Notes under the pieces: model-generated
The model's input: only the letters and a program-made list of their open reading frames with translations
What the model was told of the DNA's origin: nothing
Database searches by the model: none
DNA from: Candidatus Hadarchaeota archaeon
GTDB taxonomy: Archaea > Hadarchaeota > Hadarchaeia > Hadarchaeales > JAGGTB01
Assembly (NCBI GenBank): GCA_964384105.1
Contig: CAYLJV010000001.1
Coordinates: 256,001-320,000, forward strand
DNA length: 64,000 nt
Reading direction: 5' to 3'
Shown: piece by piece, positions 25,311-43,138 of the stretch
How positions within the stretch are numbered: the first letter of the stretch is position 1
How the letters are laid out: the number at the start of each line of letters is the position of its first letter
Made by a program: the position numbers and the translations under genes

Positions 25311-25388
25311 TGGAGCCGGGGACCGGATTTGAACCGGTGTAAGCGGATCTGCAGTCCGCCGCCTCAAACCAGGCTCGGCCACCCCGGC
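25311..25388 (-). tRNA. tRNA-Cys(GCA), CCA encoded
   Basis: Reverse complement has acceptor GCCGGGG/CCCCGGC, anticodon arm GCGGA-CTGCAGA-TCCGC, U73 and a CCA end. Confidence 0.97.
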
Positions 25389-25412: not shown

Positions 25413-25425
25413 ATAACGCTGTTAT
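25413..25425. promoter_or_regulatory. ATAAC-N3-GTTAT palindrome, copy 1 (upstream of tRNA-Cys)
   Basis: ATAACGCTGTTAT, 25 bp upstream of the tRNA 5' end. Confidence 0.7.
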
Positions 25426-25530: not shown

Positions 25531-25543
25531 ATAACAGCGTTAT
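25531..25543. promoter_or_regulatory. ATAAC-N3-GTTAT palindrome, copy 2 (upstream of yeeE-tusA)
   Basis: (T)ATAACAGCGTTAT(A), about 20 bp downstream of BRE/TATA GAAAAACTTTTAAAT. Confidence 0.75.
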
Positions 25544-25687: not shown

Positions 25688-26655
25688 ATGGAAGCAATAT
25701 TGACAGGAATGTTTCTAGGCGTAATTTTTGGCTATGTATGCCAAAGAGGCCGGTTCTGCATGAATTCCGGATTTAGGGATATTTGATGACAAGGGATTTC
25801 AGGATTTTCAAAGCCTTTGTTCTGGCCGTTCTGTTTCAGCTTATTGTTGTAAATGCTCTAGCTGGTTTGGGGATTTTCCCAATTAGACAACTTCCTTTTT
25901 TGTGGGTAGGGAATATAGTTGGGGGATTGATTTTTGGTGTAGGAATGGTACTTGCAGCCGGCTGTGCTAGTGGAACGTGGTATCGTATGGGTGAAGGAAT
26001 GATGGGTAGTTTTGTTGCGGCTTTAGGATATATTTTAGCTGCTTTTTCGGCTAGAGGAGGGGCTTTATCTCCAATAGTACGGTCAGTTCATCAGTTTGGA
26101 ATTGATACTCCAGGATTACACACTTTGTTAGGGATAAATAAGTGGGTGATAATCGTAGTATTTGTGGTGGTTGCAGGATTCTGGCTTTTTAGAAATTTTG
26201 AGATCACATCGGGTGAGGGATGGAATTGGATAAAGACAGGTTTTGGAATCGGGATAGTCGGAGTTCTTGCTTGGTGGCTTAGCACTAGAACAGGTAGGAT
26301 TTACGGTTTAGGAATAACAGCTCCGTCGGCTTCTATAGGTGAATGGTTTACTACGAGTAACACTGCGTTGGTTAACTGGGGAACTTTTTTTGTAATCGCT
26401 ATACCTATTGGGGCTATGGTGGCTTCGTTCTTACATGGCGAATTTAAATTGCGGACCCCTCCTGCAAAAAGGGTACCTGTTCAGTTTGTTGGGGGATTGG
26501 CATTGGGTCTAGGTGCTACTCTCGCAGTTGGGTGCAATATTGGTGGAAGTGTAGCGGGGATACCCGTGTTAGCCGCCGGTAATATACTCGCAACAGTTTT
26601 CTTTATTTTGGGAAACTGGATGGCAGCTTATTTGCTATTTATGAGGAGGTGGTAA
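25688..26655 (+). CDS. YeeE/YedE (TsuA-like) thiosulfate/sulfur transporter, interrupted by a -1 frameshift near 25783
   Basis: 25688-25786 encodes MEAILTG...QRGRFCMNSGFRDI*; the other frame from 25783 has the GCASG and GCNIG conserved Cys motifs. Confidence 0.9.
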
Positions 26656-26935: not shown

Positions 26936-27952
26936 CTACCTAGTTTGAGATTTAATGTCTTTTACTATCCCGATAAACTCAGTGAAAATACTGTTCATCA
27001 TTTCTTTAAATTCCTCTCTATCTGTTGCGATTTTTTCTAGGCCCTCATCAAATTCTTTTATCATTCCTATATCTAGCCAATTTTCTCTTTTGTTTGCAAA
27101 TCCATTTCCAGTGATAATTGGTTTTGCCGTTTCCATTGCTTTTTGTGCTTGTGATTCATCTCTGAATTTTAGTGGAAGATAAACAGTCATTTTTTTTACT
27201 GATCCGCTCTCGTCTTGGTCTAAGTATAGTCTTAGGGCTTTCCCTCTGTAGTAACCATGGAAGTGATCTGTTCCCTTGTCAAAATTCATTTCTTTTAGTG
27301 GTTCCACGAGATGGCTAGGTAGATTATCCATTATACATCCACAGAGGGCATCAGTTACATTGGGCTCGGATAATTGTTCTACTAGTTTAGTGAAAATATC
27401 GTATGGCATTCCCATAGCTAGTTCGTCGTCTTTGAATCCTCCAATGGAGCGGGCCCCTCCACAGAGTAAAGTCAGATTTGGTTTATCTTCCATGTATGGA
27501 ATAGCGGTTGCTTCACCGGCTATAGCAGACCCCTCGCTAGTGCAGCTTGATTCAATTCTTTCCTTTGACATTTGGTGATAGACCTGAAAGACTTTCATCA
27601 TTGTTTCGGGATCAGAAATTATTACGACTACATCAGGTGTTCCTTTTTCAAGTTCTAATGGTCTTACTGTTACAGCTTTTGTTTTTGAAGGTTTTATCCG
27701 AGGATATATTTCTGTATACTTTGGATCGGCAAATCCTAAGATGATTGTTGCAGTAAAATTGCTGAGATTTTTTTCCTTTAAAGTAAATGATTCTCTTAGT
27801 TTTGCCGCATTTCTTACGAAGTAACAGAAACGGTTTGAAGTATCTGGTGATGGACTATTGGTGTCTTGGATGTGAACGGTAATTGCCACAGGGCTCAACG
27901 GCATTTTAAAGAATTTTCTGAAACTATTTGAGAGCTCTTCATTATTTTCCAT
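26936..27952 (-). CDS. DUF169 family protein with an extra C-terminal domain
   Basis: SPVAI, RFC, PDVVVI, NLTLLCGGARS...DELAMGMP typical of DUF169; about 140 extra residues starting LCGCIMD. Confidence 0.75.
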   Translation of the reverse strand: MENNEELSNSFRKFFKMPLSPVAITVHIQDTNSPSPDTSNRFCYFVRNAAKLRESFTLKEKNLSNFTATIILGFADPKYTEIYPRIKPSKTKAVTVRPLELEKGTPDVVVIISDPETMMKVFQVYHQMSKERIESSCTSEGSAIAGEATAIPYMEDKPNLTLLCGGARSIGGFKDDELAMGMPYDIFTKLVEQLSEPNVTDALCGCIMDNLPSHLVEPLKEMNFDKGTDHFHGYYRGKALRLYLDQDESGSVKKMTVYLPLKFRDESQAQKAMETAKPIITGNGFANKRENWLDIGMIKEFDEGLEKIATDREEFKEMMNSIFTEFIGIVKDIKSQTR

Positions 27953-27953
27953 C

Positions 27954-29150
27954 CTAATTACTCACCGGAATCTCATATTTTTCAGCAATTTCGTAAAAAG
28001 TATCTATCACATATTCAAGTTCATCTCTAGAAAGTCCATAGGTGTTAATCTTTATCATTTTTGTAACGCCAGGTTGTATACCGCTTATTTTTTTCTCTTT
28101 CAACTCGTCATACAAGAAAAATCCTCTTCTCTTATGTTCCTTCGAAATTTGGTGGAATGAAGGTGTTTCTAGTGACATAAGTGTATGTTTTCTTGGTCTT
28201 TGTCCGATTTGCCGAAAATCTCTGATTTTTTCTATCTGTTTAACAAACCATCGAGCATTTTCTATGTGTTTGTCCCATTCTTGAACACGTTTGTAGACAT
28301 GAGGGAAACTAGCCATTAAGGTAGCTATTGGGGCTCCAAATACAGGAGGGCAACCAAATAGACTGGGTATTTTCTTTGTGAAACCTCTTCCCGACCACGA
28401 TCCTCTGATTTTTGAGCCACTAAATGCTTCATCTGAGTACTCATAGCTTGTCATTAGCATTCCAATGGGACCTGAAGCTGCCCACGATTTGTGTCCACTA
28501 AACGTTATAAAATCGGCATTCCACTTTTTCCCGTCAATAGGCATTATTCCGCCGGTATAGGCTGCATTTACGATAAAGGGTATATCATATTCTCTAGCTA
28601 TCGAGCCAATTTTTTCCGGTTCGATGAGGTTTCCATACCTGTAGTCTACGTGAGTAAGAAATAGTGCAGCGGGCTTCTCATTTTTTTCTTCTATTGTCTC
28701 TTCTATTCTTTCTCTATAAGCCTCCGTCTCGAGTTCGAAATCAGGATATCCGTTGTGGGGTACTTCCTTGACTTCAAGCCCGAGATTTTCTGCTGCGAGA
28801 TAAGTTGTGTAATGTGCTAGAGAGTCAATTACGATAGTGTCACCCTCTTCAGCTACAGCTTTTAGAGCGATCCACTGTGCGTGTCTACATCCGGCTGTAA
28901 ACTCCGCATCATCCATGTTAACAAATCTCGCTAAATCATTTGAAAAGTCCGAAATGGGTGGTTTATCTACTAGGTCCACTCTCCCTTCTAAACAGAAGTC
29001 ACATGTACTGTATCCATCTCCAAAGGATTGTAGCGTTTCTTTTGATTCTGGAGGGAGCATTCCACCTCGTTGAATAGGATTTAGATTGATCCAATCCTCA
29101 TCGATTCTTCTTTTGATATTTTTGTATTTGTCTAAGTCTATACTTTCCAT
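27954..29150 (-). CDS. pscS: O-phospho-L-seryl-tRNA:Cys-tRNA synthase (SepCysS)
   Basis: INLNPIQRGG, GDGYSTCDFC, AHYTT, SGHKS (PLP lysine), distal GC cysteine. Confidence 0.95.
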   Translation of the reverse strand: MESIDLDKYKNIKRRIDEDWINLNPIQRGGMLPPESKETLQSFGDGYSTCDFCLEGRVDLVDKPPISDFSNDLARFVNMDDAEFTAGCRHAQWIALKAVAEEGDTIVIDSLAHYTTYLAAENLGLEVKEVPHNGYPDFELETEAYRERIEETIEEKNEKPAALFLTHVDYRYGNLIEPEKIGSIAREYDIPFIVNAAYTGGIMPIDGKKWNADFITFSGHKSWAASGPIGMLMTSYEYSDEAFSGSKIRGSWSGRGFTKKIPSLFGCPPVFGAPIATLMASFPHVYKRVQEWDKHIENARWFVKQIEKIRDFRQIGQRPRKHTLMSLETPSFHQISKEHKRRGFFLYDELKEKKISGIQPGVTKMIKINTYGLSRDELEYVIDTFYEIAEKYEIPVSN

Positions 29151-29177: not shown

Positions 29178-29190
29178 ATAACAGCCTTAT
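29178..29190. promoter_or_regulatory. ATAAC-N3-GTTAT palindrome, copy 3 (one mismatch; pscS / Ubl-E1 divergent region)
   Basis: (T)ATAACAGCCTTAT(A), adjacent to a minus-strand TATA-like TTTAATAA. Confidence 0.65.
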
Positions 29191-29260: not shown

Positions 29261-30367
29261 ATGGTCGAGGTTATCGTGGATTTTCCCAACAAGAATGGGG
29301 CTGGAAGAAAAAAGGTAAATGTTATTTTTGAAGGGGATACTCTATCTGACCTTTTTGAAAAAATCACAGAAGGATACGGAAGATTGGTTGAGGGATTGTT
29401 TGATTTTGATCGGAAGATTCCCTTGGACCATGTAAACATTTTTATAAATAACGAGATGGCGGAGAAAAAAGAATTTGCCAGTAGTGAGGTTAGCTCTGGC
29501 TCTGAGGTCAAAATATTGCCATTAATAGCAGGAGGGTCAAAGAATAGTAAGCTTTTTGGATTTGATGAGGATCAAATCAAGAGATATAGTCGGCAGATAG
29601 TTCTTCCTGAGGTTGGTGGAAAAGGTCAGAGGAAACTTTTGGACTCAAATGTTTTGATAGTGGGAGCAGGTGGATTAGGTTCACCGGCTGCGATATATTT
29701 GGCTGCTGCGGGTGTAGGACGTATAGGAATAGTGGATGACGATGTTGTAGAGTTAAGCAATCTTCAAAGACAGATATTATATGGAACGGAAGACTTGAAA
29801 GATAGAAAAGTAAAAGTTGCAGAGAAGAGAATTCACGATATCAACCCTGAAGTTGAGGTAGTGACATATGATAAGTGTTTAACTCCCGAAAATGTCTTTG
29901 ATATCTTTGGAGAAAATTGGGATATCATTTTAGATGGTACTGATAATTTTCCTGCGAAGTTTTTGATAAATGATGCGTGCGTGATGGAAGGTATTCCTTT
30001 TTCTCATGGAGCTATTCTAAGATTTACAGGTATGGTGACTACAATACTGCCTAAGGACGGTCCTTGTTACAGATGTTTCACTCCAACGGCTCCTCCTCCT
30101 GGTTTGGTGCCTAGTTGTCAGGAAGCAGGAGTTCTGGGTGTAATGCCGGGAATAATAGGGTCTATTCAGTCAGCTGAGGTTCTAAAATACATTTTGGGTG
30201 TGGGAGGTCTTTTAAAAGGAAGGATTGTCTTTTTGGACGCTCAAGAAATGGAGTTTGAAGAATTTAAGCATAGTAGGAGGGATGAATGCCCTATATGTGG
30301 CAAAGAACCGAAAATTACTGATCTTGATCAAGTTGATTATGGGGATGTGTGTCAGGTTCGGTTTTGA
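29261..30367 (+). CDS. MoaD/ThiS ubiquitin-like domain fused to a MoeB/ThiF/UbaA E1-like adenylyltransferase
   Basis: Beta-grasp N-terminal domain ending ILPLIAGG, then RYSRQ, GAGGLG, SNLQRQ, CYRC, PSC and CPIC. Confidence 0.92.
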   Translation: MVEVIVDFPNKNGAGRKKVNVIFEGDTLSDLFEKITEGYGRLVEGLFDFDRKIPLDHVNIFINNEMAEKKEFASSEVSSGSEVKILPLIAGGSKNSKLFGFDEDQIKRYSRQIVLPEVGGKGQRKLLDSNVLIVGAGGLGSPAAIYLAAAGVGRIGIVDDDVVELSNLQRQILYGTEDLKDRKVKVAEKRIHDINPEVEVVTYDKCLTPENVFDIFGENWDIILDGTDNFPAKFLINDACVMEGIPFSHGAILRFTGMVTTILPKDGPCYRCFTPTAPPPGLVPSCQEAGVLGVMPGIIGSIQSAEVLKYILGVGGLLKGRIVFLDAQEMEFEEFKHSRRDECPICGKEPKITDLDQVDYGDVCQVRF

Positions 30368-32005: not shown

Positions 32006-32425
32006 TTAGTAATTTGTTAGCTTGACTTCAACGGGTTGTTCTTCCCATTTGAATGATTTTATCTCAGTTAATCTGCCTTTGTTATCTGTCCCTGCTATTA
32101 TCCATAGTTTTTCTGGCCACAATTCCATGCATTTTCTGTCCAAACTACTTACGAAAGCAGTCAGGTTAGGGTGGGAGTGAAAAAAACCTACCAATTCTTT
32201 GTTTTTTTCATCTCCTATTTCTTCTATGGTCTCTGCTACTAGAATTGGGTCCATTTTAAATGATATGGGTGAATCTAAAACATTCTCAGCTTCGATGGCT
32301 CTTTTTATATCTATTACTTCATTTTGTTTCTTCCCGATCAGTAAAGCACATCCTTCATTCGGGAAATATTTTTTCGAGATTTTTTCTATTTCTTCTCTAA
32401 CCTTTTTTCTCAATTTCGCTTTCAT
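32006..32425 (-). CDS. JAB/MPN+ (JAMM) metalloprotease
   Basis: EGCALLIG and FHSHP...S..D JAMM motif. Confidence 0.92.
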   Translation of the reverse strand: MKAKLRKKVREEIEKISKKYFPNEGCALLIGKKQNEVIDIKRAIEAENVLDSPISFKMDPILVAETIEEIGDEKNKELVGFFHSHPNLTAFVSSLDRKCMELWPEKLWIIAGTDNKGRLTEIKSFKWEEQPVEVKLTNY

Positions 32426-32886
32426 TTTTTTGATTTGTATGCCTTAGCACAGTGTTCGCAACAGAATGGGAGGACTTTTCCGTCTATTTTTTCCCTATAT
32501 ACTCTAGTTTTAGAATTATCTTCCGAATGTCCTTCGAAAATTTTACAACTACAGTGGGCGCATTCGGAAAGCCAGGGATCTAAAATTTCATAAATCAAAT
32601 TGTAAAAACTCTTTAAAACTTCAGAGAATTTCTCTTCTCCTTTTTCGCTGAGTTTATATATCTTTCTGGTTCGGCCCTTAACTTTCTTTTCGCTGGATTT
32701 AACTAGCCCTTCTTTCTCAAGTTCTTCTAAAAGGGGGTATATTTGTCCAGTTGATGGCTCTTTACCTAATCTTTCTTTTACTTCTCTTATTATCTCATAA
32801 CCATGCCTTGGCTTTTGTGATAGTAAAGCTATTGTGTAAAACTTAGTTAGATTTGTAAGAAATTCCCAGGTCTCAGTCATTTTCAT
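32422..32886 (-). CDS. PadR-family regulator with C-terminal TRASH metal-binding domain
   Basis: HGYEII...GQIYPLL..LEKEG...RKIYKL winged HTH; CAHC...FCCEHC TRASH motif. Confidence 0.88.
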   Translation of the reverse strand: MKMTETWEFLTNLTKFYTIALLSQKPRHGYEIIREVKERLGKEPSTGQIYPLLEELEKEGLVKSSEKKVKGRTRKIYKLSEKGEEKFSEVLKSFYNLIYEILDPWLSECAHCSCKIFEGHSEDNSKTRVYREKIDGKVLPFCCEHCAKAYKSKK

Positions 32887-32925
32887 CCTAATCGTAAAGT
32901 TTATTGGCCTATATATTTAAATATG

Positions 32926-32946
32926 ATATATCTAAAAAAGACATAT
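32926..32946. promoter_or_regulatory. Imperfect inverted repeat ATATATCT-N5-AGACATAT, candidate PadR-TRASH operator
   Basis: Lies between TATA-like ATATTTAAATAT and the copA start in the divergent promoter. Confidence 0.4.
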
Positions 32947-32954
32947 GTGGGACC

Positions 32955-35453
32955 ATGGTAGGTGAGAGTAAAAAGAAATTAACTATTAAAATCGGGGGAA
33001 TGACTTGTGTTTCCTGTGCACAAACTGTAGAAAACTCCCTCGAGAGATTGAATGGTATATACAAGGCTAACGTCAACTTTGCTACTGAAAAGTTAATCGT
33101 TGAATATGATCCGGATAAAGTTGAAAAAGAAAAAATATTCAAGACTATAGAAAATTCTGGTTATCAACCGATCGAGGAAGAAAAAACAGGAAAAGGAAAA
33201 GAAGAAATAACTTTCGAAATCACCGACATGACCTGTGCTTCTTGCGCAGACACGGTCCAAAAAGCCCTTTCAAATCTTGAAGGAGTATACACTGCAAATG
33301 TTAACCTAGCGACCGAGAAGGCAAGGGTGGAATACTCCCCCGATCTGGTTTCGATCGAGGAAATGAGAAGAGTAATCGAGGAAGTAGGTTACGGGGTGGA
33401 ATCCGAAGAAAGAGGAGAGCAAGAAGTAGAAGAGGTCGAAAAGGCAAAGAATCGCACTCTTGTCGCTTGGGGAGCCTCAATCCCGATTATCGCTTGGATG
33501 ATCCCGGAGATGATCTTCGGTATTGCCTGGCCTAATCAGATGATCTATAATCTAGGTATGACGTTACTAGCTATTCCCGTTTTATTCTGGGTCGGTCGCC
33601 ACACCTACAAGAGCGCCCTGAAGACCATAAGTCACGGGTCGGCTAACATGGACGTCTTGATTTTCCTCGGATCTTTCGCAGCATTCGTGACTGGTCCTTC
33701 AAGGCTACTATTTTTTCCAGAAATTCTGAATTACGCAGGGGTTGGGGCGATGATAATGGCATTCCACCTCACAGGTAGGTACATCGAAGCAAGGGCAAGA
33801 GGTCGAGCTTCTCAGGCTATCAAAAGGCTGATGGAGTTAGAGGCGGACACGGCGAGGATAATCGAGGACGGCGAAGAAAGGGAGGTTCCCTTGGACCGGG
33901 TCGAGGAAGGAAACCTATTGAAAGTCAGACCTGGTGAAAAGATACCCACCGACGGGGTTGTAGTAGAAGGGGAGAGTTCCGTAGATGAATCCATGGCGAC
34001 TGGAGAGTCCACCCCCGTTCGCAAGGAAAAGGGTGATGAGGTGATAGGGTCTACGGTAAACCAGGATGGGGTGCTCACCGTCGAAGCGACCAAGGTGGGG
34101 AAGGATACCTTCCTATCCAAAGTCATAGAGATGGTCGAAGAAGCCCAGGGGACAAAAGTTCCCATCCAAAGATTCGCTGACAGGATTACAAGCTATTTCG
34201 TTCCTGCTATCATTATAATAACGATCATCACAGTCATACTCTGGTTAATTATACCACAGAAAGTGGATTTTCTTGCTTCCGCTTTTGAAGGAACGCTACC
34301 TTGGATAAACTTATCATTACGTCCGGTCATGCTGGCCATATTCGCGGGCATAGCCACTCTCGTTATAGCTTGCCCCTGCGCTTTAGGTCTTGCTACCCCT
34401 ACGGCTCTTATGGTTGGGAGTGGTAAGGGTGCAGAGAACGGGATACTCATTCGTAAAGGGGAAGCGATCCAGGTCCTCAAGAACATCGATACAATAATTT
34501 TCGATAAAACGGGAACGATGACAGAAGGAAAAATGACCTTAACTGACATTATTGTCGCACCGGGAATTAATGGTAACCCTGAAGACCAAATACTTCAGCT
34601 TGCGGCGACTGCGGAATACAACTCCGAACACCCGATAGGTAGGGCTATCGTAGAAGAAGCCAGGGAAAGAGAAACGGAACTTCGAGAACCTGACGAGTTT
34701 AAAGCGATAGGAGGGAAAGGCGTGAAAATCTCACTAGATAGTAGCGAAGTAATAGTCGGAAATCGGAATTTTTTAGAGGAAGAGGGCATTGACTCATCCC
34801 CAATGGAGGAAGAATTGGAAAAACTGGAGAACGAAGGCAAGACAGCCATACTCATCGGAAAGGACAGAAGACTCTTAGGAGCTGTGGCGGTGGCAGACAC
34901 TCTCAAAGAGGATACCATTCCGACAATAAGCAAACTGAAGGAGATGGGTCTCGAAACAGCGATGATAACCGGCGACAATCCTAGAACCGCGAAGGCCATA
35001 GCTGAAAAGGCGGGAATATCAAGAGTCCTGTCGGAAGTACTCCCTGACGAAAAAGCCGACGAGATTAGAAAACTTCAAGAAAAGGGAAAAAAAGTTGCCA
35101 TGGTTGGGGACGGGATAAACGATGCACCTGCTCTAACTCAATCGAACGTAGGAATAGCAATCGGCACAGGGACCGATATCGCAATCGAATCGGGAGAGAT
35201 AGTTCTGGTTCGTGGGGAACTCTCTGGAGTAGTTAGTGCGGTCGAACTTTCACAGAAGACTTTCGACAAGATTAGACAAAACCTCTGGTGGGCCTTCGGC
35301 TACAACGTCGTAATGATCCCTCTAGCAGTTTTAGGGATAATGCACCCTCTTTTTGCTGAGGCTGCTATGGCTGTAAGTTCTGTTAGTGTAGTAACAAATG
35401 CGAATAGACTCAAAAATGTGGATATTGGCTATGATACATTGAAACGTGAATAG
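32955..35453 (+). CDS. copA: Cu(I)-translocating P1B-type ATPase with two HMA domains
   Basis: MTCVSC and [32 protein letters not shown]...MAVSS. Confidence 0.96.
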
Positions 35454-35572
35454 TTTATGACTGCTTTAGTATTTTGAGAAACTGAATTTGAATTTTTCTA
35501 GTTAGAGCTTATTATATCTGCTATTTGAATACCATAAATACTAAATCTATTGAGGGGTTAGAATCAACTACA

Positions 35573-35974
35573 ATGAGACCGCCTTGTGAATCAATTGTGA
35601 AGAGGGTTCTGCCGACGGTTAGATCGATCCTGGTTAAAGAACTTAGTGATGAATATGGCCTTAGCCAAAGTGAGATAGCTAATAAGCTTGCTATAACTCA
35701 ACCTGCTGTGAGCCAATATTTAAGCTCTGCTCGGGGGAAGGGAAAGCTTAAAAAGAGCTTAAAAAAGACGGGCTTGTATCCTAAGCTCAAGAAACTTGCT
35801 AAAGAAATCGCCGAAGGCAGTATCAAACGTGAACAAATAGTTAAAAAATACTGTGAAGTCTGTACTTCTATGAGGTCCGAGGAGGTTCTTTGTGCTATTC
35901 ATGCCGAGAATGCACCCTTATTGTCAGAGGAAGAGTGTAAAATTTGTCTTGAAACTAAGGATGAACAGTCCTAG
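35573..35974 (+). CDS. Cys-rich HTH transcriptional regulator (COG2522/ThiR-N-like)
   Basis: MRPPCE, HTH SQSEIANKLAITQPAVSQYL, C-terminal CEVC, LCAIH and CKIC. Confidence 0.85.
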   Translation: MRPPCESIVKRVLPTVRSILVKELSDEYGLSQSEIANKLAITQPAVSQYLSSARGKGKLKKSLKKTGLYPKLKKLAKEIAEGSIKREQIVKKYCEVCTSMRSEEVLCAIHAENAPLLSEEECKICLETKDEQS

Positions 35975-36380
35975 ACAGAACGGATAGCGGATGTCCTTTA
36001 CTTTTAAATTCAAATTCTTTGTACCATCCGAATGGAGCTCTCGAAGAATTAAAATTGGATTTTTTTAATTCAGATTCTAACTTTTCCAGAATTTCGATTG
36101 CGAATTGTGGAGAGGAAAGATTTTCTGAGAGGTGTGCAAAAGGAAAGAGAAAAATATTTTTACTCTTGATTTTTGAAGCCACTTTTTTTATTTCTCTAAG
36201 GGCCTTTTCTACCATTTCGTCTCCAGTGGAGTTTTCATCACTTTTTTCAACCGAAAAAAATACTATAAGAGGATCTTCCATGTCTCTTTCTTTACTGTTT
36301 TCACCTATCTCTTCTGCAATGGGGGTCTTTTGCTTAACTTTGTAGTTTACATAGTCTGCATGAATGAACAACATTCTCAT
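35955..36380 (-). CDS. Stand-alone archaeal ThrRS-type (DTD-like) editing domain
   Basis: MRMLFIHAD, VEKSDE, PFAHLS, RAPFGWYK, KGHPL; 141 aa with no catalytic or anticodon-binding domain. Confidence 0.92.
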   Translation of the reverse strand: MRMLFIHADYVNYKVKQKTPIAEEIGENSKERDMEDPLIVFFSVEKSDENSTGDEMVEKALREIKKVASKIKSKNIFLFPFAHLSENLSSPQFAIEILEKLESELKKSNFNSSRAPFGWYKEFEFKSKGHPLSVLSRTVHP

Positions 36381-36418
36381 TGTTTCCGATTATTGTTATT
36401 ACACTTGGAGATAAAAAT

Positions 36419-36431
36419 ATAACGGCGTTAT
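36419..36431. promoter_or_regulatory. ATAAC-N3-GTTAT palindrome, copy 4 (upstream of the editing-domain gene)
   Basis: ATAACGGCGTTAT next to a minus-strand TATA-like ATTTTTAT. Confidence 0.75.
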
Positions 36432-36437
36432 TAAAGT

Positions 36438-37739
36438 TTAGGCTGCTTTTAGTGCTTGATCGAGATCCTCTTTTATGTCTTCTATATGTTCGATTCCTAC
36501 AGAAAGTCTTATAAAGTCCTCAGTAACACCGCCTTGTTTTCGTTGTTTTGCAGATAATTGGGAGTGTGTTGTTGACCAAGGGTGGATTGCAAGTGATTTT
36601 GCGTCGCCTACATTTGCTAGATGTGAGAACAGTCGAAGATTTTCAATGAATTTTTTTCCTGCTTTAGCTCCTCCTTCAATTCCGAAACCTACTATCCCTC
36701 CGTAACCATTCTTCAGATATTTTTCTGCTAGGTCTTTTGTAGGGTGGTCCTCTAGTCCAGGGTAGATAACCCAGTTAACCTTTGGATGGTCCTTTAGGAA
36801 TTCCACTGTTTTCATTGCGTTCTCTGAATGTCTCTCCATCCTTAGATGTAGTGTTTCCAATCCTTGGAGGAGTAAAAATGCGTTGAAAGGGCTCATACAA
36901 GATCCTATGTCTCGAGTATATCGAGATTTCAATTTGACTATATAAGATAGTTCTTGGAATTCGTTCCAGTAGTTAAGCCCGCCTCTGTATCCTGGATCGG
37001 TTTCAGTTATCTCGGGAAAATTCCCTTTCGACCAGTCGAATTTTCCAGAATCTACAACTAGACCACCGAGGACTGTGCCATGACCTCCGATCCATTTTGT
37101 TGCTGAGTGAGTTATTATGTCGGTGCCCCATTTGAATGGGTTGCATAGATATGGTGTAGCAAAGGTGTTGTCAACGAACAAAGGAATTTGATTTTCGTGA
37201 GCTACTTTGGCCGCCTCTTCTATATCCAGCACGTTTAATTTAGGATTTCCAATAGTTTCACCAAAGATCGCTTTTGTATTCTCATCGATAGATTCGGCGA
37301 ACCCTTCAGGCGTTGGATCAACAAATTCTACGTTTATTCCAAATTTCTTTGGAAATGTCAGATCAAAAAGGGTGATTGTTCCACCGTACAGTGTTTTCGA
37401 GGCCACAATTTTGTCTCCAGAACTGGCTATTGTGATGAGCGCTAGTGTTGTGGCTGCTTGTCCTGATGCGGTTGCTGCTGCGGCTATCCCGCTTTCTAGT
37501 TTTGCTATTCTTTTCTCTAGTGTTTCATAGGTGGGGTTTGTGAACCGACTGTAGATTTGTCCGGGGAATTCGGGAGGTTTTAATGCGAATAAATCTGCGG
37601 CTTGCTTTGTGTCTTTAAAATTATAAGCTACGGTGGGATATATTGGGGGTGCCCTTGCTCTAGTGTGTGGATCTGGTTCTTGTCCCGCATGCAATGTTTC
37701 AGTATCAAACTTAAATTTCTCATTACTCAATTTTTTCAC
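36438..37739 (-). CDS. metY: O-acetylhomoserine sulfhydrylase (MetY/CysD family)
   Basis: [41 protein letters not shown]. Confidence 0.93.
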
Positions 37740-37784: not shown

Positions 37785-37814
37785 TTTAAAGCTTTAAAGG
37801 CATAACGGTGTTAT
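37785..37814. promoter_or_regulatory. Back-to-back TATA boxes (TTTAAAGCTTTAAA) and ATAAC-N3-GTTAT palindrome, copy 5 (metY/iscS divergent region)
   Basis: ATAACGGTGTTAT at 37802-37814. Confidence 0.75.
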
Positions 37815-37829
37815 AAAAGATTGGTATTT

Positions 37830-38987
37830 ATGGAAGTCTATTTGGATAATGGGAATACCACTCCTGTTGATAGACGAGTGGTAGAAGCTATGGAGCCTTA
37901 TTTTACCGAAAAATTTGGACACCCCCTTTTCATCTATTCTCAGGGAAAAGAAGCTAATGAAGCTTTAGAGGATGCTAGTGAGGTTATTGCTGATACAGTC
38001 GGTGCTGGCGGAGATGAAGTTATTTTTACTTCTGGGGCAACGGAAGCTAACGATATTGCATTACGTGGAGTTGCTGGCGCTAGAAAAGACCAAGGAAATC
38101 ATATAATTACTTCCGAAATAGAACACCCTTCCGTTTTGAGAGTATGTGAGGAACTCGAGAGGGTCGGATACGAAGTGGATTATTTGGGAGTTGATGAAGA
38201 AGGATTTGTTGATCTTGATCAGTTAAGGGAACTAATAAAGGATGAGACTATCCTAGTTAGTGTAACCCAAGTTAGTGATGAGATTGGCACTATTGAACCG
38301 CTAAAAAAGATTGGGGAGATCATATCAGAAAGAAATCCTGAAACATATTTTCATACAAATGCCGCTGCTTCTTACGGTCTTGTTCCAATTGATATTAGGG
38401 AAAGTAATATCGATTTAGTCAGTCTAAGTGCTCATAAAATACATGGACCAAAGGGAATTGGTGCATTGATAGCTAGAGATCGGGTAGAATTGGAGCCTAT
38501 TAACTATGGGTATCTTTCCCTCTCGAGGATAAGACCGGGTACTGAAAATGTACCGGGTATTGTAGGATTTCGGAAGGCAGTTGAGCTAGCTTTTGAGGAT
38601 TTTAATTCTAAAGTTGGATTTATCGGAGACTTGAGAGACACTTTGATGAGGGGGATCGAGGATAGTATTCCGGAGGTAGTTATGCATGGCCCAAGTGGTG
38701 AAGAAAGGAGTCCTGCTAACGTGAATTATTCTTTTAAGCATATAGAGGGCGAATCCATTTTACTACATCTCGATGCTAGAGGTATTTCTGTGTCTACCGG
38801 TTCCGCATGTGCTACCCGGAAACTTGAGCCAAGCCATGTACTCCGGGCAATAGAGGTAGATCCAGTAGTTTCCCACGGAGCTATTAGATTTACATTGAGT
38901 AGAATGAATACTGAAGAAGAAATCGATTATACCTTGGAGGTACTTCCAGAAGTTGTTGAGGGATTGAGATCGATGAGCCCTATATAA
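37830..38987 (+). CDS. iscS: Cysteine desulfurase IscS/NifS family
   Basis: YLDN..TT, FTSGATEA, IEHPSV, SAHKIHGPKG, STGSAC. Confidence 0.92.
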   Translation: MEVYLDNGNTTPVDRRVVEAMEPYFTEKFGHPLFIYSQGKEANEALEDASEVIADTVGAGGDEVIFTSGATEANDIALRGVAGARKDQGNHIITSEIEHPSVLRVCEELERVGYEVDYLGVDEEGFVDLDQLRELIKDETILVSVTQVSDEIGTIEPLKKIGEIISERNPETYFHTNAAASYGLVPIDIRESNIDLVSLSAHKIHGPKGIGALIARDRVELEPINYGYLSLSRIRPGTENVPGIVGFRKAVELAFEDFNSKVGFIGDLRDTLMRGIEDSIPEVVMHGPSGEERSPANVNYSFKHIEGESILLHLDARGISVSTGSACATRKLEPSHVLRAIEVDPVVSHGAIRFTLSRMNTEEEIDYTLEVLPEVVEGLRSMSPI

Positions 38988-38999
38988 GTAGGTGGTTGA

Positions 39000-39413
39000 A
39001 TGGGAAAAAACAAAGAAAGCAGATACACTGAGAGAGGCTTTTTGGATTATAGTGATAAAGTTATAGAATTATTCCAAAATCCTAAGAATGTAGGTAGAAT
39101 GGAAAACCCAGATGTAGTTGTCCAGGAGGGAGATCCTACTTGTGGAGATACAATTCAACTCTCTTTAAAATTTAAAGAGGATATTATTGAGGATGCGAAG
39201 TTTCTATCTTTTGGATGTGCTGCAAATATAGCTACGGGTTCCGTGCTTACAGAGGCGATAAAGGGAAAAACGATAGAAGAGGCTAGAGAGATTACTATGA
39301 AAGATTTAGAAGATGAATTAGGGGGTTTACCCCCAGTCAAAATACACTGCGCTAAATTGGCAACTCGGGTTTTAGAGCGTGCTTTGAAGGAAGCATTGAA
39401 TGAATATATTTGA
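39000..39413 (+). CDS. iscU: Fe-S scaffold IscU/NifU-N
   Basis: NPKNVG, CGD, FGCAA, LPPVKIHC. Confidence 0.95.
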   Translation: MGKNKESRYTERGFLDYSDKVIELFQNPKNVGRMENPDVVVQEGDPTCGDTIQLSLKFKEDIIEDAKFLSFGCAANIATGSVLTEAIKGKTIEEAREITMKDLEDELGGLPPVKIHCAKLATRVLERALKEALNEYI

Positions 39414-39450: not shown

Positions 39451-40500
39451 ATGTCAGGTCAAGAATTGGATCGTTTAATTGTACCGAGAATCAGAGATGG
39501 CTGTATACTGGCTAGAGGATTAGAGATTGAAAGTTTGGAAGAGGATGGGGAAAAAGCAGTAGTGGAAGTGAGTCCTTGTACGTCTGAAAGAGGGAAGATA
39601 GTTACTGAGATAGATATTTCTGAAGGGTACGAAAATACACCTTTTTTGGATTCAAAGATCTTGTGTTTACTGTTGGATTCTTATGAGAGTCATTTTGCTG
39701 AGCTTAAATGTAGTACCAAATTAGGTTTGGCCAGATTGATGTGGAAGGCCCATAGGATCTATATCTATGAAAAAGGAAAGCTAAAGATAAGGTATGCTCA
39801 CAGTCGTGAGGATGCGATTAAGTTTGCTAATTCGATTTTGCGTCTCGTTTTACCTAGTTTGATTTGTGATAAGTGTAGTCTACCTATTGCTGATTGTATT
39901 CTTGCTGAATGTGTGGAATGCACCTTTGATGAATCGCCCCGAATTCTAAGTGTTCAGGATTTTTTTAATGGACCCCTCCTCAGAAGAAGCTATGAATGCT
40001 TGCTTGAAGCTTTTGAGAAGACTGAGGAATTAAGAAAGAGGTTGTTTGATCAGAGAGAGATTCCATCTTATTTAAAAAAGAGTGTAAAACGAGAGTTCAT
40101 TAAATCTATCGAATACGCGATGGATTTTTCCTTAGGATTGAAAGAGCATAATTTTCTTGTTGCAGGAGTAGAAATGATTTCTTTGGCTAAGCAGAGCCTT
40201 TTGTTGATAGATCAGGAAGATATTATTTTGAAAATTTCAGATTCAAAGTCAACAGGGGAATTTTGGGATCTTATTCGTGATTTAGATCGTTTTTTATGGC
40301 AAATAAATGAAGGACTTGTTTTATCCGTAAATGAAGTCTATCGAGATAACTTTGAAGATATTGAATCCAAGATAGTAAAAGCAACAAATATTCTAGAGAA
40401 AATAAAAACTTCTGAATTCAGTAACAAAAAAGAGCATTTTAAAATATCCGAGAAACTTCTCAAAACTAATAAAAAGTTTTTACAAAAGATTTCGGCTTAG
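39451..40500 (+). CDS. Hypothetical Cys-rich protein
   Basis: 349-aa ORF co-oriented with iscSU; CDKC..DC...CVEC cluster. Confidence 0.6.
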   Translation: MSGQELDRLIVPRIRDGCILARGLEIESLEEDGEKAVVEVSPCTSERGKIVTEIDISEGYENTPFLDSKILCLLLDSYESHFAELKCSTKLGLARLMWKAHRIYIYEKGKLKIRYAHSREDAIKFANSILRLVLPSLICDKCSLPIADCILAECVECTFDESPRILSVQDFFNGPLLRRSYECLLEAFEKTEELRKRLFDQREIPSYLKKSVKREFIKSIEYAMDFSLGLKEHNFLVAGVEMISLAKQSLLLIDQEDIILKISDSKSTGEFWDLIRDLDRFLWQINEGLVLSVNEVYRDNFEDIESKIVKATNILEKIKTSEFSNKKEHFKISEKLLKTNKKFLQKISA

Positions 40501-41018: not shown

Positions 41019-43138
41019 TTAGCCACATAAGGGGCAGATTCCGGTTATCCCACCCCCCGAATATTCGGCTTCTGCTGTTGTAAAATTAGGCGTTTTTTGT
41101 TTTCTGTCTTTTTCCTCTCTTCCTTTGTATAGAACCTGCTCCGATTTACTTCCGTATCTATAGACTGTGATACCTTTGCAATTCAGCTTCCAGGCTAACT
41201 TGTAGATTTTTTCAACATCATGTTTTGTTGCATCTTCGGGTAAATTGATTGTTTTAGATACAGCATTGTCTACATACTTTTGAAAGGCTGCTTGCATCTT
41301 TACATGCCATTTTGGATCTATCTCCAAAGCGGTAACAAAAATTTTCTTTATATCTTCAGGTATTCCCTCAATGTTTTCGAGAGATCCGGTTTTTGCTATT
41401 TCTTCCATTAATTCTCCACTATAGAACCCCCGCTCTTTTGATATTCTTTCAAATAAAGGATTAATTTCAAAGAGCTTATTTCCCTCTAAAACATTTCTCA
41501 TAAAAGCGATAGAGAAAAGAGGCTCTATGCTTGATGAGCAGCCTGCTATAATTGAGATACTTCCTGTGGGTGCTATTGAAGTTACTGTCGCATTTCTCAT
41601 AGATTCATAATTTTCATACCATATGCTCTTTTCGAAATTGGGAAAGGGTCCACGTTTTTTTCCGAGTTCTATGGATTTTTCTCTTGCTTTTTCCGAAATA
41701 AATTTCATGATTTTCTCACCTAGATCGATTGCTTCTTCTGAATCGTAGGGTATTCCAAGTTGTATAAGTAATTCAGCAAATCCCATTACTCCAAGTCCGA
41801 TCTTCCTATTTGCCTTCGCCATTTTTTCTATTTCTGGGTTGGGATATTCGTTTGCGTCGATAACATTATCTAGAAAATGTACGGCAGTTTTTACTATATT
41901 TTCTAGCTTATCCCATCTATCATTTTTTTATTTTTTTCTTCTTTTGCTATTTTGCTTAGATTAATACTCCCGAGGTTACAAGGTTCGTTTGCCAGTAGCG
42001 GAACTTCTCCACAAGGATTTGTAGCTTCTATCCTCCCGATTTGAGGTGTTGGGTTGTGTCTGTTTATTTCGTCTATGAATAGAACGCCGGGATCACCAGA
42101 TTCCCAGGCGTTTTTAGTAATTTGGTTCCAGATCCTTCTGGCTTTCAGTTTTTTTGTAACAGAGTTAGTTCTCGGGTTTATTAGTGGATACTCATCATCG
42201 TTTTCTACAGCTTCCATAAAATCGTCAGATACTGAAACGGAGATATTAAAATTGCTTAGCGGACCCTCCTCAGTTTTTGAATTTATAAATTCATTTATAT
42301 CTGGATGGTTGGCTTGAAGAACGCCCATCATAGCACCTCTTCTTTTCCCTCCCGCTTTTATGACGTCGGTCACGATATCAAAAACTCTCATAAACGAGAC
42401 GGGTCCAGATGCGACTCCTTTTGTGGATCGAACTACGTCACCTCTAGGTCTTAGTTTCGAAAAATTGAAACCTACTCCTCCACCAGTTTGTTCTATTAGA
42501 GCAGTTTTTTTAACAGTAGAAAAGATGCTTTCAAGAGAATCTTCGACTGGAAGAACAAAACAGGCACTTAATTGTCCGAGTGGAGCATTGGCATTGAATA
42601 GAGTAGGGGAATTAGGCAGAAACTCCAGCTTGCTCATTATCTTGAAAAATTTTAGAAAACTTTTTTCCGGTTTTTGTCCATAATTTTTATCGATATTGGA
42701 GATGCTCTCAGCAACTCGATGAAACATTTCTGAAGGTGTCTCGATAATTTCTCCCTTTTCGTTCTTTAACAAGTATCTTTTTTTGAGGACCTCTAGAGCA
42801 TTCACTGTTAGTTTTGGTTCTTCTTCTATCTCGAATTTTTTCTTTAATTCTCTAATTTCCCTCTTCTTCTTTCTGTAATTCTCATATTCTTCAGCAACTT
42901 TTTCATAGTTTTTTTCTTTAAGTGTTTCTACCACAATATCTTGGATTTTTTCTACTGAAGGTATTTCCACTTTGTAATCTTCTTCTAATTTCTTTACTAC
43001 GTAATCCGATATTTTCTTAGATTTTTCTCCGTCTTCTATATTCGCGGCTATTAGTGCCCGATGAATTGCACTTTTTATTCTCTTCTGCTCGAAATCTACT
43101 GTCTTGCCATCTCTTTTTTTAACTTTTGAGATTCTCAT
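41019..43138 (-). CDS. nrdJ: Class II (adenosylcobalamin-dependent) ribonucleotide reductase with ATP-cone, frameshifted near 41915
   Basis: ATP-cone, PNSPTL, SACFV, TNPCGE, CNLGS in 41903-43138; FLDNVID, RKIGLG, IAPTGS, SKTIN, CPLC in the next frame. Confidence 0.92.

Follow-up and report, generated by a model that had tools for sequence, protein, structure and literature searches.

A free-standing ThrRS-type editing domain in a predicted sulfur regulon of a Hadarchaeota archaeon

The locus

We analyzed a 64,000-nucleotide stretch of the genome of a Candidatus Hadarchaeota archaeon (assembly GCA_964384105.1, contig CAYLJV010000001.1, positions 256,001 to 320,000). We will call this stretch the window, and positions are numbered from its first letter. 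The genome is 1.62 Mb and 90.2% complete. The window encodes a free-standing copy of the editing domain found in archaeal threonyl-tRNA synthetase (ThrRS), which Pfam names tRNA-Thr_ED and which we will call ED. The immediate neighbors of ED are a gene for a helix-turn-helix (HTH) regulator and metY, and the spacer between metY and ED contains a perfect palindrome that we predict to be an operator:

35955-36380, minus strand: ED, 141 amino acids, ATG start, valine at position 134 (V134)
36381-36437, minus strand: spacer between metY and ED, 57 nucleotides, containing the predicted operator and presumably an archaeal promoter
36419-36431, no strand: perfect 13-nucleotide palindrome ATAACGGCGTTAT, predicted operator, 39 nucleotides upstream of the ATG of ED and 6 nucleotides past the stop of metY
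36438-37739, minus strand: metY (O-acetylhomoserine sulfhydrylase; TIGR01326, 607.6 bits), upstream of ED on the same strand
35525-35974, plus strand: HTH regulator whose C-terminus is Cys-rich (CxxC...C...CxxC) and which is a candidate to bind the palindrome; its gene converges on ED with a 20-nucleotide overlap

The half of the palindrome that is closer to ED abuts an A/T-rich, TATA-like stretch on the ED strand (TTATATTTTTAT). An earlier note on this DNA had credited ED with its own copy of the operator, which is what we find. It had also placed ED within an island of SepCysS and tRNA-Cys genes. This holds loosely: the SepCysS gene is 6.8 kb away and the tRNA-Cys gene is 10.6 kb away.

Domain content, fold, and pocket

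ED is a stand-alone editing domain, as the earlier note had it. It matches all of PF08915 (tRNA-Thr_ED; model positions 1-137 of 137, 164 bits, E = 2.7e-48, cut-off 30.2), and the Pfam search found no second domain. Two longer NCBIfam models align to it over their N-terminal ~135 positions: the archaeal ThrRS model (positions 1-139 of 613, far under its cut-off) and the Ser-tRNA(Thr) hydrolase PRK14938 (positions 1-133 of 387; 122.6 bits, cut-off 362). ED therefore has neither the synthetase core nor the anticodon-binding part.

ED is 46-48% identical to the solved editing domains of the ThrRS of Pyrococcus abyssi and M. jannaschii. An AlphaFold2 model, with a 49-sequence alignment as input, has a mean confidence (pLDDT) of 92.5. 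With Foldseek, this model matched the structures 1y2q, 3pd4, and 2hl1 with TM-scores of 0.96-0.97 and root-mean-square deviations of 0.8-1.1 Å. The model also matched D-aminoacyl-tRNA deacylase (DTD), with TM-scores of 0.63-0.72 and 13-20% identity.

ED and the P. abyssi domain are numbered alike from residue 103 on, so it is exact to say that valine replaces E134 in the C-terminal motif (K128-G-H-P-L-S-V134-L-S-R137). ED has the same residues as ThrRS domains at P80, A82, H83, A94, F117-G118-W119, Y120, K121, and G129-H130-P131. Both the adenosine-76 pocket and the serine pocket appear from these residues to be retained. Among the side chains of the amino-acid pocket, Y120 is kept and the cross-subunit E134 is replaced. 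The earlier note had picked out this valine as unusual for the family, and indeed all 24 ThrRS-embedded domains from relatives in the same phylum have E134.

The role of this glutamate is described in passages of Ahmad 2015 (PMC4491819) on the P. abyssi domain (PabNTD). There, Glu134 of the partner subunit holds the alpha-amino group of the substrate. The E134A and Y120A/E134A variants keep their discrimination between Ser and Thr, at a rate about 1.5-fold lower. Threonine is rejected through clashes with main-chain atoms, for which its single extra methyl group is enough. Water is positioned by His83 and Lys121, and the 2'-OH of the tRNA is implicated in catalysis. The isolated domains ApNTD and PabNTD are reported there to be active in trans.

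According to these passages, two ideas in the earlier note are not supported. One was that E134 limits the substrate range, and the other was that losing an acidic pocket residue would suit a phosphoseryl substrate. Because E134A keeps discrimination, V134 is no argument for a phosphoseryl substrate. Because E134A is tolerated in PabNTD, V134 makes ED a less typical member of the family but does not make it less likely to be an active deacylase.

A paralog of the ThrRS editing domain

The ThrRS of this genome is a 605-amino-acid frame (C1:568219-570027) that keeps its own editing domain (182.5 bits), with E134. The free copy is therefore a true paralog. A maximum-likelihood tree gathers all 24 ThrRS-embedded domains into a single clade (SH-aLRT support of 99) and places the free-standing domains outside of it, in three main lineages: A (support of 99), B (100), and M (99). 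The ED of the window groups with lineage A with a support of 83. The tree was built without one sequence (L031, a 161-amino-acid frame on a 2.7-kb contig of genome G011), and the branching order among the free-standing lineages is unsettled.

Lineage A is the V134 type. The nearest named relatives of the window's ED in the databases are from MSBL1 single-cell genomes and from metagenome-assembled genomes (MAGs) of Hadarchaeales (56-67% identity). Lineage B is 37-41% identical and has Y120E, L135S, and, in most members, A82V. Lineage M is from Methanocellales and Methanomicrobiales, and its proteins have about 180 amino acids. A small fourth group, from MAGs labeled as Thermococci or Methanobacteriota, has I82, I85, and T134.

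The comparison of pocket residues that gave E134 in the 24 ThrRS-embedded domains was made without L031 and without database proteins shorter than 130 amino acids. In lineage A, residue 134 is valine in 51 of 54 database proteins (the others have I, L, or A, once each) and in 10 of 11 copies from genomes (the other has L). In lineage B, six of seven copies have E and one has V. The earlier note had asked if the change from E to V tracks pscS or metY. It does not: the 37 domains of lineage M, most of them beside SepCysS and MetY, have D (29) or E (8). The change tracks a single lineage of Hadarchaeota and MSBL1 and is not the key to the link with sulfur.

Very divergent ED-like proteins (30-36% identity) are free-standing in two genomes (L047, at G017:C1:953597-953968, and G059:C10:7636-7959). 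They keep H83 and have Y120F, K121L, and GES instead of GHP. Their context is not sulfur-related and has no palindrome. They are probably not the same kind of deacylase. We also looked for fused forms of ED with a word-limited search: all 56 of the longer relatives were ordinary ThrRS, and none was a fusion to SepRS.

A conserved predicted operator

Besides the site upstream of ED, four palindromes lie in the island:

25413-25425 and 25531-25543, no strand: two exact palindromes, between tRNA-Cys and a sulfur-transport gene (25783-26655)
29178-29190, no strand: palindrome ATAACAGCCTTAT, one mismatch in the fixed positions, between the divergent genes for SepCysS and ThiS-ThiF
37802-37814, no strand: palindrome ATAACGGTGTTAT, between the divergent metY and iscS

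Allowing up to two mismatches, the pattern occurs eight times in the window, as compared to 1.72 expected, and none of 100 shuffles reached eight. Five of these sites (25413, 25531, 29178, 36419, and 37802) are in intergenic DNA of the sulfur island. Across the genome, there are nine exact matches to ATAACNNNGTTAT versus four for a reversed control, and eight of the nine are intergenic by our calls of open reading frames (ORFs). Seven of these eight precede tRNA-Cys/Sulf_transp (two sites), ED, metY/iscS, FTR1 (an iron permease), ThiF, or HcyBio (COG1900) with CBS. The eighth is at C1:163154. Sites with one mismatch precede SepCysS/ThiS-ThiF, MsrA-MsrB, and a weakly ThiS-like gene (22.2 bits, cut-off 22.5).

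The palindrome is conserved in relatives. An exact copy lies 16-101 nucleotides upstream of 14 of the 19 ED copies from outside the window: 8/11 in lineage A, 6/7 in lineage B, and not at the single divergent copy. As background, we found two exact sites in 799 kb of other archaeal loci. Both are in loci from two MAGs labeled as Thermococci, and there are none in the loci from Methanomicrobiales or Methanocellales, so the operator is specific to the Hadarchaeota-like group. Another relative (G017, 1.3 Mb, 94% complete) has four exact sites in its genome, all of them in a 12.4-kb region around ED. One immediately precedes the gene for the HTH regulator, and one is between ED and a Cu-ATPase gene. 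These observations support the view that ED is wired into a sulfur/iron-sulfur (Fe-S) regulon through a conserved predicted operator, and the conservation is the decisive point.

The palindrome is at or just before the start of the HTH regulator in three genus-mates and in G017, which suggests that this protein is the binder and that it is often autoregulated. The regulator is adjacent and convergent to ED in 11 of 12 V134-type copies, and it is present in three of the six genus-mates, none of which has a free ED. No palindrome with one mismatch or fewer was found upstream of the window's own regulator gene. Its true start is probably near 35573 (MRPPCE...), judging by its homologs. The family (the window's protein and those of L040, L042, L043, L062-L067, and L157-L160) has the C-terminal pattern CxxC-x11-C-x17-CxxC. 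Its genes are conserved after iscS, iscU, and the gene for a Cys-rich 349-amino-acid protein (unk349), often with ATAACNNNGTTAT at their own start. These features suggest an IscR-like sensor of Fe-S clusters or sulfur. The family had no curated match beyond generic HTH models, and look-ups in the PDB and the Atlas returned generic HTH_3-type archaeal regulators and no informative relative.

The route to Cys-tRNA

In the order, 38 of 41 genomes have a SepRS match over the cut-off, and this genome is one of them. For CysRS, the number is six of the 41, and this genome is not among them. With no CysRS found, we predict that this organism makes Cys-tRNA through SepRS and SepCysS only. The genes of this route in the window are:

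25311-25388, minus strand: tRNA-Cys (GCA), U73, CCA encoded, with a palindrome 24 nucleotides upstream of its 5' end
27954-29150, minus strand: SepCysS paralog, 40-42% identical to the SepCysS proteins that are encoded adjacent to ED elsewhere

A second SepCysS (C2:197678-198862, minus strand) is 61-70% identical to the ED-adjacent type and 40% identical to the window's copy. A second tRNA-Cys gene (C2:201199-201276, minus strand) is nearby. Thus the SepCysS that is near ED is not of the ED-adjacent type. The discriminator base is U73 in all three tRNA-Thr and both tRNA-Cys of this genome, and it is G73 in all four tRNA-Ser. Two more apparent cases of U73 (Arg-CCG and Pro-GGG) probably have mis-set ends.

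We considered two other associations. A link between ED and the absence of CysRS gave no usable signal; six genomes of the order have CysRS over the cut-off. The only ED carrier with a nearly full match to CysRS, just under the cut-off, is G025. The second was that ED replaces DTD. Neither DTD2 (PF04414) nor DTD1 (PF02580) has any match in this genome, the ORF of ED included, so this genome has no recognized D-aminoacyl-tRNA deacylase. DTD2 was found in none of the seven genomes of the genus and in all of the other 34 genomes of the order. We rejected this idea because the genus-mates that lack DTD2 show no free ED, and because, among the 41 genomes, the ED carriers of other genera (G013, G017, G020, G022, G025, G029, G030, and G038) have DTD2 in eight of eight cases.

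Gene neighborhoods of ED

The earlier note expected homologs of ED to be linked to sulfur genes, and they are, both in Hadarchaeota and in methanogens. For Hadarchaeota, we compared 19 sources (the window and 18 other loci), with 20 copies of ED. The number of sources with each kind of gene near ED is:

HTH regulator: 14 of 19
Cys-rich protein of the unk349 family: 14 of 19
Class-V aminotransferase (IscS, SufS, or SepCysS): 14 of 19
ThiI PP-loop protein, 225 amino acids: 11 of 19
DUF6775: 9 of 19
Thi4: 8 of 19
IscU: 8 of 19
ThiS-ThiF: 5 of 19
MetY: 2 of 19

The characteristic neighbors of the V134 lineage are the HTH regulator, IscS-IscU, and ThiI. Lineage B copies adjoin a true SepCysS (L044, L062, and L068) or SufS (L045 and L046).

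For Methanocellales and Methanomicrobiales, we started from 62 loci, of which 44 gave an ORF for ED under our filter (41 short and 3 long). A typical operon runs SepCysS, MetY, a MetX-like alpha/beta-hydrolase with CBS, ED, DUF1890, DUF1894, and ThiI, and the start of ED overlaps the stop of the MetX-like gene. Among the 41 loci with a short ED, and with each gene cluster annotated from one representative, an aminotransferase is present in 33, the MetX-like protein in 29, MetY in 28, and ThiI in 27. Twenty-five proteins of the aminotransferase cluster are best labeled as SepCysS. Genes for DUF1890 and DUF1894 lie between ED and ThiI in 20 and 13 of the 41 loci, respectively (for instance, L126 8541-9301). 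In the MAGs labeled as Thermococci or Methanobacteriota, ThiI is directly downstream of ED in four of four loci. The linkage to sulfur is thus real, old, and wider than this window. It is also independent of E134V, as the methanogen domains in operons with SepCysS and MetY have E or D at position 134.

Relation to known systems

The core of this idea is already in print as a hypothesis. In its main-text passages, Mukai 2017 (mBio, PMC5424206) associates a tRNA-Thr-ED gene with clade VII SepCysS, tRNA-Cys, and sulfur genes, names methanogens and MSBL1/Hadesarchaea as its carriers, in distinct clades, and states the hypothesis of Ser-tRNA(Cys) editing. Passages of Mukai 2022 (Front Genet, PMC8762117) report that some bacterial SepRS are fused to tRNA-Thr-ED, that the domain alone selects tRNA via U73, and that tRNA-Cys has U73 too. 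Our literature search found no experimental test of the function of tRNA-Thr-ED. We did not meet the operator, the candidate regulator, the lineage-specific changes in the pocket, or the ThiI neighbor in the main-text passages of the Mukai papers; the supplements may show V134. Our analysis adds operator-level support for a regulon that would include ED, tRNA-Cys, metY/iscS, ThiF, HcyBio, and, with one mismatch, SepCysS/ThiS-ThiF.

The window's ED resembles the stand-alone tRNA-Thr-ED of Mukai and colleagues in being a small single-domain homolog in a host of the MSBL1/Hadesarchaea type. The genetic association is less clear-cut: sulfur genes and tRNA-Cys are at most 11 kb away and have the palindrome in common with ED, but the SepCysS in this island is not of the ED-adjacent type. 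ED differs in lying between the HTH regulator and metY rather than adjacent to SepCysS. As compared to the cis-acting domains of ThrRS (PabNTD and MjNTD; PDB 1Y2Q, 2HL1, and 4RRF; TM-scores of 0.93-0.97), it has the same pockets, but it is free-standing, has V instead of E134, and is predicted to be under a sulfur-regulon operator. The crenarchaeal ThrRS-ED/ThrRS-2 proteins (Aeropyrum and Sulfolobus; PRK14938) are also editing domains, and they act in trans. However, they have ~387 amino acids with an anticodon-binding part and are partners of a ThrRS without an editing domain, whereas ED has 141 amino acids and the ThrRS of this genome is complete. In the bacterial SepRS with an N-terminal tRNA-Thr-ED, as described by Mukai 2022, the same domain is coupled to the Sep-tRNA(Cys) pathway, but by fusion. 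ED shares the logic of a free-standing deacylase with DTD, AlaX, and YbaK/ProXp, and a fold class with DTD. It is not a member of the DTD family, as the likeness is at the level of the fold and there is no match to PF02580.

Proposed function and alternatives

We tentatively propose that ED is a regulon-controlled, trans-acting Ser-tRNA deacylase that acts on tRNAs with U73 (Cys and Thr) and that protects cysteine codons when SepCysS stalls. As a member of the family of archaeal ThrRS editing domains, with a DTD-like fold, it would deacylate aminoacyl-tRNA. Because it has no part that would bind the tRNA body or the anticodon, we expect it to act only on the acceptor end. Transcription of ED would be tied to sulfur and Fe-S homeostasis by the palindromic operator, which would overlap the promoter and would probably be bound by the neighboring Cys-rich HTH regulator. 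Since Cys-tRNA is predicted to form only through SepRS and SepCysS, the most likely job of ED would be to hydrolyze Ser-tRNA(Cys). This could arise from Sep-tRNA(Cys) by loss of the phosphate when the sulfur-dependent step of SepCysS stalls, and its removal would prevent the incorporation of serine at cysteine codons. The serine and adenosine pockets are unchanged apart from residue 134, which favors Ser over the bulkier Sep. ED very probably still hydrolyzes Ser-tRNA(Thr). Here, we infer the substrate, the pairing of regulator and operator, and the conditions of induction; a role in editing tRNA(Cys) is plausible. From the earlier note's idea of a repurposed trans-editing factor, we retain the paralogy, the sulfur regulon, and a plausible link to tRNA(Cys), and we drop the rationale from E134V and the Sep substrate.

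Several observations weigh against this proposal. First, the conserved V134 shows selection for a non-acidic residue, which a simple serine-editing model leaves unexplained. Second, only about 19 of 66 genomes yielded a free-standing ED, while SepRS is nearly universal in the phylum, so the function of ED is dispensable or covered otherwise. None of the six genus-mates has a free ED, yet five of them carry the ED-adjacent type of SepCysS. (The exception, G004, had no match to this type, and its genome is 70% complete.) Third, SepCysS adjoins ED in none of the 12 mapped copies of the V134 lineage. The ED-adjacent type of SepCysS occurs in 2 of the 13 V134-type genomes and in 12 of the 53 others, and on these numbers, which are raw counts from genomes that are related and not independent, we rejected a co-occurrence of this type with the V134 lineage. 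(It is found in five of the seven genomes with lineage B, which has Y120E.) Finally, ThiI, not SepCysS, is the neighbor that is common to all of the free-standing lineages.

ED might instead provide extra editing of Ser-tRNA(Thr), and perhaps of other tRNAs mischarged with Ser, without any special link to tRNA(Cys). It would be induced when sulfur acceptors go unused, so that serine and phosphoserine build up. The pocket matches that of ThrRS domains except at residue 134, and domains with E134A edit Ser-tRNA(Thr) normally. The activity of isolated ApNTD and PabNTD in trans, as described in passages of PMC4491819, and the U73 of tRNA-Thr also fit. However, an intact cis domain with E134 is already present in the ThrRS of the host. 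Extra editing of Ser-tRNA(Thr) would not account for a linkage to SepCysS, tRNA-Cys, IscSU, and ThiI that recurs independently in different phyla, nor for the fusions to bacterial SepRS that are described in passages of Mukai 2022. Selection for V134, or for Y120E in a second lineage, would be unexplained as well. We consider it unlikely that this is all that ED does.

Another idea is that the free-standing domains do not proofread serine. They would serve tRNA-dependent cysteine synthesis as a regulated release valve and would hydrolyze aberrant acyl-tRNA(Cys) left by a stalled SepCysS. This could be Sep-, dehydroalanyl-, or pyruvoyl-tRNA(Cys), or some other species that lacks a normal alpha-ammonium group. 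This idea follows from the pockets: the adenosine pocket is invariant, while each lineage has altered one or more side chains of the amino-acid pocket (V134, which removes the clamp on the alpha-amine; Y120E with A82V; or I82, I85, and T134). ED would then be among the very few promoters under a repressor that senses Fe-S clusters or sulfur. We judge this improbable.

We have similarly little confidence that ED edits an analogue from the sulfur pathway, such as homoserine, homocysteine, or O-acetylhomoserine, on tRNA. The earlier note had raised this alternative in view of metY, which lies immediately upstream of the window's ED. In methanogens, the operon of SepCysS, MetY, the MetX-like protein, and ED, with MetY and the MetX-like protein in 28 and 29 of the 41 loci, points the same way, as does the variation of pocket residues between lineages. 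On the other side, MetY is near ED in only 2 of the 19 Hadarchaeota sources. Also, the residues that fix serine (Y120, K121, and W119) are intact in ED, and such a pocket rejects even threonine. Cyclization on the synthetase normally removes homocysteine and homoserine prior to their transfer, which counts against this alternative too.

The earlier note's first suggestion was a Sep-tRNA(Cys) deacylase that recycles tRNA(Cys) under sulfur limitation, with E134V fitting the pocket to a phosphoseryl group. It shares with our proposal the evidence from the regulon and from the route to cysteine, V134 is conserved within its lineage, and Sep-tRNA(Cys) would be expected to pile up if SepCysS stalls. 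But E134 touches the alpha-amino group rather than the side chain, and the specificity of E134A is unchanged, according to passages of PMC4491819. Threonine is excluded by one methyl group, the other pocket residues are unchanged, and there is no new basic residue, so room for a phosphate in the pocket is unlikely. The domains that are directly within SepCysS operons keep E or D. Furthermore, destroying an intermediate of the pathway would be a futile cycle that wastes ATP. We therefore find this suggestion very doubtful.

Finally, ED might not be a proofreader at all but an accessory of tRNA thiolation and sulfur relay that binds or deacylates the 3' end of tRNA, for instance to present the CCA end to ThiI or to free it; a ThiI-family gene accompanies all of the free-standing lineages (11/19 Hadarchaeota, 27/41 methanogen, and 4/4 Thermococci/Methanobacteriota loci) and in many of these genomes encodes a bare PP-loop protein without THUMP (225 amino acids in Hadarchaeota), but the PP-loop ThiI of this genome is on another contig (C8), the ED of Methanoregula is accompanied by a full-length ThiI with THUMP, H83 and K121, which position the water, are conserved as expected of an active hydrolase, and the co-location may merely reflect a shared regulon, so this seems very unlikely indeed.

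Other genes of the island

The other genes that we annotated on the two sides of ED include:

29261-30367, plus strand: ThiS-ThiF fusion, divergent from SepCysS
37821-38987, plus strand: iscS
39000-39413, plus strand: iscU
39451-40500, plus strand: unk349, Cys-rich, with no Pfam or NCBIfam match

In 14 of the 19 sources, a conserved counterpart of the N-terminal ~230 amino acids of unk349 is encoded between IscU and the HTH regulator. Rfam, which was run over the whole window, reported two tRNAs only.

The ThiS-ThiF fusion, a JAB/MPN peptidase (32006-32425, minus strand), and MetY share this island. Presumably, the island resembles systems of the HcyS/HcyF/HcyD/MetY type, in which homocysteine synthesis depends on a protein thiocarboxylate. 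HcyBio (COG1900) is encoded elsewhere (C2:46369-47790), under the same predicted operator. The next gene directly downstream of SepCysS, also on the minus strand (26936-27952), encodes a 338-amino-acid protein with a partial match to DUF169 and no NCBIfam match. This protein may be a partner of SepCysS.

The gene for a PadR-type regulator whose C-terminal tail is Cys-rich (32422-32886, minus strand) diverges from that for a Cu-type P-type ATPase (32904-35453, plus strand). In three relatives (L042, L062, and L066), the ATPase gene and the ED gene are divergent from each other, and the palindrome is common to both. Farther along, two adjacent ORFs of 267 and 411 amino acids (41019-41822 and 41903-43138, both on the minus strand) are about 80 nucleotides apart. 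From a reading of the sequence, they appear to encode the C-terminal and the N-terminal part, respectively, of a single ribonucleotide reductase, the gene for which could be split, frameshifted, or interrupted by an intein.

Implications

There is a specific danger for organisms whose only route to cysteine is on tRNA: if SepCysS stalls, tRNA(Cys) can end up with the wrong residue. To the published hypothesis, our analysis adds the paralogy with ThrRS, an operator that is conserved across genera, and the finding that E134V is confined to one lineage, which sharpens the choice of proteins and mutants. If the proposal is true, then a dedicated, regulated trans-editing factor would be a new layer of quality control for an ancient coding system.

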